Positions 16,682-17,002 of a stretch of DNA of 64,000 nucleotides are shown piece after piece. Source of the DNA: Escherichia coli. GTDB lineage: Bacteria; Pseudomonadota; Gammaproteobacteria; Enterobacterales; Enterobacteriaceae. A program made the translations under genes and the position numbers. The stretch is from assembly GCF_044647545.1 (NCBI RefSeq), contig NZ_CP172818.1. One strand, given 5' to 3'. The stretch's first letter is position 1, and the number at the start of each line of letters is the position of its first letter. The notes under the pieces were generated by a model. That model was not told the DNA's origin and did not search any database. It saw nothing but the letters and a program-made list of their open reading frames with translations.

Positions 16682-17002
16682 ATGAAAATAACATTACTGG
16701 TTACCTTGCTTTTCGGACTGGTTTTTTTAACCACCGTCGGCGCTGCCGAGAGAACCTTAACCCCGCAACAACAGCGTATGACCTCCTGTAATCAGCAGGC
16801 GACGGCGCAGGCGTTGAAAGGGGATGCTCGTAAGACCTACATGAGTGATTGCCTGAAGAACAGCAAGTCTGCGCCTGGTGAAAAAAGTTTGACGCCACAG
16901 CAGCAAAAGATGCGCGAATGTAATAATCAAGCAACGCAACAATCTCTGAAAGGTGATGATCGTAATAAGTTTATGAGCGCCTGCCTCAAGAAAGCCGCCT
17001 GA
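16682..17002 (+). CDS. psiF: phosphate starvation-inducible protein PsiF
   Basis: ORF 16664..17002; start at MKITLLVTLL gives 106 aa; signal peptide plus two tandem copies of one motif. Confidence 0.85.
   Translation: MKITLLVTLLFGLVFLTTVGAAERTLTPQQQRMTSCNQQATAQALKGDARKTYMSDCLKNSKSAPGEKSLTPQQQKMRECNNQATQQSLKGDDRNKFMSACLKKAA

Follow-up and report, generated by a model that had tools for sequence, protein, structure and literature searches.

The tandem units of Escherichia coli PsiF: cleavage site, disulfide pairing and taxonomic reach of the phosphate link

PsiF of Escherichia coli consists of two tandem 34-residue units, and recalculation of published mass spectrometry data places its signal peptide cleavage site after A21 and pairs its four cysteines within the units. 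The cleavage site and the disulfide connectivity, both obtained from existing data, are new here, as are the lack of unit specialisation within the PsiF family and the limited range of taxa on which the "phosphate starvation" label rests. The repeat itself is not new, being already on record in the Pfam database.

Repeat units, family and predicted fold

The window analysed is a stretch of 64,000 nucleotides of E. coli DNA (contig NZ_CP172818.1), in which psiF and its parts are located as follows.

16682-17002, + strand: psiF CDS, 106 aa, a single ORF (ATG 16682, TGA 17000-17002)
16682-16744, + strand: signal peptide, residues 1-21 (cleavage between VGA and AE); the intact mass fits only a mature start at A22
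16757-16858, + strand: PsiF repeat unit 1, residues 26-59; Pfam PF07769 stretch 27-59
16859-16888, + strand: flexible linker, residues 60-69 (NSKSAPGEKS, 10 residues), with low AF2 pLDDT
16889-16990, + strand: PsiF repeat unit 2, residues 70-103; second Pfam PF07769 stretch
16787-16789, 16850-16852, 16919-16921 and 16982-16984, + strand: codons of C36, C57, C80 and C101, read from the sequence

The original prediction described mature PsiF as two tandem copies of one motif of about 37 aa with conserved Cys pairs. Both peptides that it quoted are present, at residues 26-62 and 70-105, and the units are offset by 44 aa (132 nt). The repeat itself stands, but its length has to be corrected to the 34 residues of the conserved unit, which is also the length of the Pfam model. 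In a self-alignment, which had been suggested as a check, the halves are identical at 23 of 35 residues (66%) without gaps, at E=1e-16 (BLASTP). The BLOSUM62 local score between the halves is 126, whereas 5000 composition-preserving shuffles of the mature sequence gave a mean of 21.5 (sd 4.4, maximum 47; z=23.7). Although mature PsiF contains 20% Q+N and 18% K+R, the view that the halves are alike through their low-complexity, Q/K-rich make-up, and not through homology, is already refuted by these scores and deserves practically no credence, since the shuffles never came above 47, the conserved aligned columns are position-specific and a curated HMM matches both units.

That HMM, the 34-position Pfam model PF07769 ("psiF repeat"), matches PsiF twice with 115.5 bits and E=8.7e-34 (gathering score 21), the best stretch being residues 27-59 at profile positions 2-34. 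In addition, the NCBIfam equivalog NF008560 covers residues 1-106 of 106 with 234.5 bits at a curated cut-off of 165 bits. The PsiF of the window is a member of the family described by PF07769 and NF008560, and nothing in it differs; to this family our analysis contributes details such as the range of copy numbers, the pairing of the cysteines and the restricted phylogenetic spread of the phoA link. Because the repeat is a curated Pfam family, the earlier observation is correct, yet not new; confirming it changes nothing, as the repeat is textbook-level database knowledge. Since synonymous sites differ widely between the units, a DNA-level repeat finder run on psiF picked up nothing but short chance matches.

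A full scan of 1.84 billion cluster representatives at E<=1e-3 delimited a PsiF family of 1,204 clusters (50% identity), and units were counted with a purpose-built unit HMM on the best 150 of the 1,204 cluster representatives. Two units were found in 106 of these proteins, three in 31, four in one and five in one; the remaining 11 have one unit and are mostly visibly truncated or frameshifted. The halves are thus homologous, and the 34-residue unit recurs two to five times in relatives, which upholds the internal duplication that had been proposed. Cysteine conservation, another of the suggested checks, proved nearly complete: both Cys are conserved to 99% across 325 units from the 150 representatives, and exactly two Cys are present in 318 of the 325. 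Among these two-Cys units the spacing is C-x20-C in 275 and C-x18-C in 39, and in 129 of the 139 multi-unit proteins the count is exactly two Cys for each unit. PsiF itself carries one pair per unit, as the original prediction had it: C36 and C57 followed by C80 and C101, with C-x20-C in both.

Beyond the cysteines, M8, N12, A15, L20, G22, R25, F28, M29 and L33 are kept in 83-97% of units (n=325). Position 25 is R in 97% of units, and position 26 is K in 67% and R in 11%; in E. coli PsiF the R25 residues are R50 and R94, with K51 and K96 as basic neighbours. The mean net charge is +3.2 per unit and 96% of units are net positive; mature E. coli PsiF has a net charge of +8. The spacer between units ranges from a few residues to about 30 among homologues, and a signal-peptide-like hydrophobic N-terminus is present in nearly all family members. 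In the longer members Pfam finds PsiF repeats only, with no unit fused to a domain of known function. Four members (P0206, P0229, P0233, P0256) have as their C-terminal ~55 residues a conserved Cys-containing module that lies beyond a long Ala/Pro-rich spacer. It follows the pattern C-G-x-D-x-V-V-W-V-N-x-x-S-x-I-Y-H-F...Y-G-K-T-K-x-G-A-Y-M-C-E-x-D-A and has no Pfam match at E<=0.01. Separately, PsiF gave a sub-threshold match to TIGR04453 ("Lepto_8Cys Cys-rich protein"; E=2.4e-4, 21.5 bits, cutoff 34) that spans the signal peptide and unit 1; judged by this similarity, a distant multi-unit relative may exist in Leptospira.

In E. coli the duplication is old. A codon-wise comparison of the two units found 69 of 108 nucleotides identical, including 14 of 36 third positions, and 10 of the 23 identical amino acids use the same codon, where a fraction of about 0.40 is expected from the codon usage of the gene; codon identity is thus near expectation. 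Across 77 genomes the same-codon fraction between units has a mean of 0.57. Codon sharing is high in three Pseudomonas genomes (18/21, 18/23 and 20/26 in L080, L059 and L086) and in Enterobacter cloacae (14/17; L019), again with about 0.40 expected, which suggests that recent gene conversion may have acted between the repeats in some lineages, though not in E. coli. Compared between proteins, unit 1 is on average 56.3% identical to unit 1, unit 2 is 57.3% identical to unit 2 and unit 1 is 56.4% identical to unit 2, while the two units of one protein reach a mean of 65%. At the 18 variable columns the corresponding identity is 43% within a protein, 31% with the same position of other proteins and 30% with the other position, against 14% from composition alone. 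Units 1 and 2 are therefore not distinct subtypes across the family, and only close relatives show clear positional orthology. The simplest reading is slow concerted evolution via occasional gene conversion, possibly combined with co-adaptation to one partner.

AF2 modelling of full-length PsiF (73-sequence alignment) predicted helices at residues 28-42, 47-61, 72-86 and 91-104, with pLDDT >90 in the units, about 56-59 in the linker, and a pTM of 0.41. Mature PsiF alone gave the same picture, with a pTM of 0.43 and a linker pLDDT below 50 at its centre. Structure prediction, suggested earlier as a means of recognising a repeated module, thus returned two helix-loop-helix hairpins, one per unit, in which every helix has a single Cys. 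Residues M8, C11, A15, L20, F28, M29, C32 and L33 probably make up the small core of a hairpin, and we infer from the model that the G22-D23 loop caps helix 2 and that R25, which hardly varies, lies on the exposed side together with the K/R-rich faces.

The predicted arrangement of the hairpins speaks for separate beads on a string rather than a single four-helix bundle, because the AF2 picture coincides with highly variable spacers and with relatives of three to five units. If the units were instead packed into a single bundle, the repeat would be a structural necessity and not a valency device. Such packing would suit the two-unit architecture, by far the commonest at 106 of 150, and the greater likeness of units within than between proteins could then reflect co-evolving contact surfaces. 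We nevertheless regard the bundle as rather improbable: the pTM is only 0.41-0.43 despite confident units and a disordered-looking linker centre (pLDDT <50), values compatible in these models with weak packing between the two hairpins; homologues tolerate spacers from a few to about 30 residues as well as three, four or five units; and the few hydrophobic residues of each unit are already used in the intra-hairpin core.

The phoA-psiF locus and the reach of the phosphate link

Many E. coli chromosomes contain the psiF region with 100% identity and carry the annotation psiF there. By RefSeq annotation, psiF has phoA upstream and adrA (dgcC) downstream, and the following elements surround it in the window.

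15068-15085, + strand: Pho box (PhoB binding site) of the phoA-psiF operon promoter, CTGTCATAAAGTTGTCAC, with 2 mismatches to CTGTCATnnnnCTGTCAT
15148-16563, + strand: phoA (alkaline phosphatase) CDS with a GTG start, phoA by RefSeq annotation, the upstream gene of the operon
16562-16606, + strand: terminator-like hairpin with a T-run (T7) in the phoA-psiF spacer, a 13-pair stem followed by GTTTTTTTG
16669-16673, + strand: Shine-Dalgarno-like GAGGG, 8 nt 5' of the psiF ATG
17019-17046, + strand: stem-loop 3' of the psiF stop, a probable operon terminator, with an 11-pair stem (-20.1 kcal/mol, z=-5.1)

When held against the E. coli Pho regulon, the promoter that drives psiF does have a Pho box (15068-15085), located about 60 nt 5' of the phoA GTG start. 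Consensus scans of the phoA-psiF spacer found neither a Pho box (E. coli consensus) nor a separate psiF promoter on the + strand. The spacer hairpin has an RNA fold energy of -22.3 kcal/mol (z=-3.3), and since it resembles a terminator, expression of psiF from the phoA promoter would need read-through. The stem-loop behind psiF was missed by the consensus terminator scan because its T-run is weak (GAAATTTCAT). Rfam gave only a chance-level match on window positions 14300-17400, and the PADLOC defence-system models gave no hit. An in-frame ATG at 16664-16666, 18 nt upstream of the psiF ATG, would give a 112-aa product, and database records with that or a longer start exist (P0002, 112 aa; P0033, 124 aa); the GAGGG Shine-Dalgarno sequence and the 106-aa equivalog model favour the start at 16682 over that at 16664. 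Elsewhere in the window, two overlapping Pho boxes (TTTTCATAAATCTGTCATAAATCTGACGC) are present at 30351-30379 (+ strand), 5' of ORFs 30432-31121 and 31179-32474, which encode a 229-aa response regulator and a 431-aa histidine kinase that are PhoB/PhoR-like by sequence. At these boxes, the window that contains phoA-psiF would also have the autoregulated promoter of phoBR.

PhoB-dependent expression of phoA-psiF has been documented by PhoB ChIP-seq and RNA-seq (PMC10294691), and psiF was induced 4.8-fold in a Citrobacter rodentium pstCA mutant (PMC3511308). The psiF gene of Salmonella is expressed in vivo (PMC3236720). Moreover, the sRNA CpxQ is reported to pair near the psiF Shine-Dalgarno sequence and to repress PsiF (bioRxiv 10.1101/2025.09.11.675593); CpxQ is an envelope-stress sRNA cut from cpxP mRNA. 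PsiF was also seen in colonies by mass spectrometry (PMC9196203) and by western blot (bioRxiv 10.1101/2025.09.11.675593) in studies not aimed at phosphate starvation. These detections may hint at PhoB-independent expression.

We surveyed the gene context in 80 named genomes that hold the best PsiF relatives. A full-length phoA lies directly upstream of psiF, in the same orientation and with a spacer of 93-160 nt, in 21 of the 80, all of them Enterobacteriaceae; in the other 59 no full-length phoA adjoins psiF. Nine other Enterobacteriaceae loci lack an intact phoA and have psiF between iraP and proC. In one of the nine, that of Enterobacter sp. R1(2018), a 67-aa phoA remnant is left 5' of psiF (L032:5638-5838), so that phoA must have been lost at least once. 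In Erwinia and Pantoea psiF is found near proC, in Yersinia, Serratia and Rahnella in the order galK-galM-psiF-gpmA (L038, L044, L047, L050, L051, L081, L082), and in Pseudomonas next to an alpha/beta hydrolase, an EamA transporter or AraC regulator and an AI-2E-type transporter. The Yersiniaceae gene order is conserved and has no connection with phosphate genes. Across the 80 genomes, psiF neighbourhoods are not conserved between lineages and provide no functional hint.

Among the 59 psiF genes without full-length phoA, scanned with the E. coli consensus for all taxa, a Pho box above background was found only in L024 (13/14). With the same consensus, a score of at least 10 was reached at three of the 59 loci, against about 4.3 expected by chance. 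The exception is Superficieibacter electus (L024), in which phoA is missing and a near-perfect Pho box (CTGTCATCGTTTTGTCAT) is located between iraP and psiF at ~5805-5822. By its arrangement, this locus looks as if the phoA promoter had been left to drive psiF directly. In one Herbaspirillum transcriptome psiF co-varies with phoB and phoA. Taken together, gene order and Pho boxes make the phosphate link look like a feature of phoA-carrying enterics. PhoB control of psiF is assumed from the name alone in Yersinia papers (PMC5981175), and the PsiF name has also been carried over to Yersinia ruckeri. The designation "phosphate starvation-inducible" is thus being transferred to Yersinia, Pseudomonas and others without support from phoA linkage or a Pho box.

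These contexts bear on the idea that PsiF is a dedicated PhoA accessory, that is, a folding helper or a substrate-delivery or product-capture factor with no role where PhoA is missing. The direct succession of phoA and psiF in 21 of 80 genomes and the co-regulation of the pair by PhoB speak for such a partnership, yet we consider it quite unlikely, given that 59 of 80 genomes have no full-length adjoining phoA (including the nine Enterobacteriaceae loci with iraP-psiF-proC), that psiF of Yersiniaceae and Pseudomonas sits in quite different neighbourhoods with no Pho-box enrichment, and that PsiF was detected by top-down mass spectrometry and western blot in work that did not aim at phosphate starvation.

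Export and disulfides in published mass spectra

Native top-down mass spectrometry of E. coli K-12 colonies identified PsiF (PMC9196203). The supplement of that study lists an observed monoisotopic mass of 9443.4898 Da and a calculated mass of 9518.64 Da for AAERTL…KKAA, a difference of -75.15 Da that the authors did not explain and that their fragment table absorbs as shifts of +27.9949 and -103.1477 Da. We recalculated the mass of PsiF, going through all cleavage sites and oxidation states that are plausible. Residues 22-106 (AERTL…) with two disulfides amount to 9443.5741 Da, from which the observed value is off by -8.9 ppm; all other combinations of cleavage and oxidation miss the intact mass by at least 2 Da. 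The four PsiF fragment masses listed in PMC9196203, on which our reassignment rests, fit the same form of the protein.

5450.6374 Da: b50 (residues 22-71), 1 disulfide, 3.3 ppm
3992.8920 Da: y35 (residues 72-106), 1 disulfide, 6.8 ppm
3992.8559 Da: y35 (residues 72-106), 1 disulfide, 15.8 ppm
9283.4203 Da: b83 (residues 22-104), 2 disulfides, 7.4 ppm

The loss of one more Ala, owing to cleavage after A21, together with two disulfides thus explains the intact mass and the four fragments to within 16 ppm. Fragments b50 and y35 are a complementary pair from cleavage between T71 and P72, which separates the units, and each piece is lighter by exactly 2 H. Because the two pieces come apart with one S-S bond each, the bonds are C36-C57 and C80-C101. 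The original prediction had raised two disulfide-stabilised modules as a possibility, and the two intra-unit disulfides from the mass recalculation, along with the two AF2 hairpins, substantiate it. The periplasmic Dsb system probably introduces these bonds. The cleavage site and disulfides derived from these spectra provide an experimentally grounded domain model of PsiF.

A different use of the cysteines would be a metal site, for example Cys4 Zn or Cu shared by both units, which would make PsiF a periplasmic metallochaperone for the Zn-dependent PhoA. Four Cys that are nearly invariant and the two conserved Met of each unit are suggestive of metal binding, as is the operon with the Zn/Mg enzyme PhoA, and an over-expression screen for H2O2 resistance turned up psiF next to phoA (PMC8228696). 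We judge this very unlikely, however: in native colony spectra the mass equals that of the apo-protein less 4 H and shows no metal adduct; b50 and y35, each minus 2 H and separable, place the pairing within units; proteins with three and five units have an odd number of Cys pairs; and most PsiF family members do not adjoin phoA.

Proposed function and comparison with other helical hairpins

The function of PsiF had been called poorly defined, and this assessment holds: the literature contains expression data, and targeted searches found no biochemical function. Our best explanation of PsiF as a whole, which we hold with good confidence, is an exported protein of two disulfide-stapled modules that arose by an old duplication and is encoded in an operon with phoA. 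PsiF is exported and loses its signal peptide after A21, which leaves a mature protein of 85 residues. This is composed of two 34-residue modules, each a predicted helix-loop-helix hairpin with one intra-unit disulfide, joined by a flexible 10-residue linker; relatives string two to five such modules like beads. The two units go back to an old tandem duplication, and in E. coli psiF is transcribed with phoA from the PhoB-activated promoter and repressed by the CpxQ sRNA.

As to how the protein might work, the exposed, strongly basic surface (R25, K/R 26 and the conserved G-D helix cap) is its probable working surface. Tandem basic hairpins could bind an anionic, probably phosphorylated, envelope ligand or surface multivalently, for which polyphosphate, nucleic acid, phospholipid or LPS head groups and anionic periplasmic glucans are candidates. 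In phoA-carrying enterics, this anionic-ligand binding would have been recruited to phosphate scavenging. Multivalent binding combined with such recruitment wherever phoA adjoins psiF is a speculative proposal that we think has a modest chance of being right. A positive charge by itself says little in favour of a specific anionic ligand, and the near-invariant R25 and N12 could be purely structural. Still, a basic, multivalent, bead-like PsiF points to concrete binding experiments on a conserved gene of the E. coli Pho regulon that has had no assigned function since 1990.

Searches of solved structures by PsiF sequence returned nothing below E=0.46, and Foldseek of PsiF against the PDB gave no match below E=5. 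The plant alpha-hairpinins (vicilin-buried peptides 7uv1/6o3q, Luffin P1 6o3s and nigellin 2nb2) have two disulfides arranged as CX3C...CX3C, compared with the single C-x20-C disulfide of the PsiF unit. These peptides come from plant seeds while PsiF is bacterial and periplasmic, and at 9-19% identity there is no sequence similarity between them. Structural scores between PsiF and alpha-hairpinins are weak, at the level expected for any helical hairpin. In the mitochondrial intermembrane space, small Tim (twin-CX3C) and CHCH (twin-CX9C) proteins contain hairpins with two disulfides each and form hexameric chaperone assemblies. Their Cys spacing is unlike that of PsiF, and no sequence relationship was detected. 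Membership of PsiF in the alpha-hairpinin, twin-CX3C or CHCH class was rejected on the grounds that its unit has one Cys per helix, not two.

The CpxP/Spy/ZraP "LTXXQ" proteins (PF07813) are small, basic, all-helical periplasmic hairpins without a Cys pair. Each PsiF unit starts with LTPQQ, a literal match to their LTXXQ helix-capping motif, and a further point of contact is that CpxQ, which represses psiF, derives from the cpxP transcript. PF07813 is absent from the Pfam scan of PsiF at E<=1. The motif common to PsiF and CpxP/Spy is most simply a generic helix N-cap, and hence a lead rather than a relationship. Set against these families, the PsiF repeat might constitute a distinct bacterial class of single-disulfide alpha-hairpins, whose arrays of two to five would bind phosphorylated polyanions, whose units would be kept alike by gene conversion or by co-adaptation to the ligand, and for which "phosphate starvation-inducible" would describe a late recruitment beside phoA in some Enterobacteriaceae; this wider reading is tentative, and somewhat more doubtful than the binding proposal that it contains.
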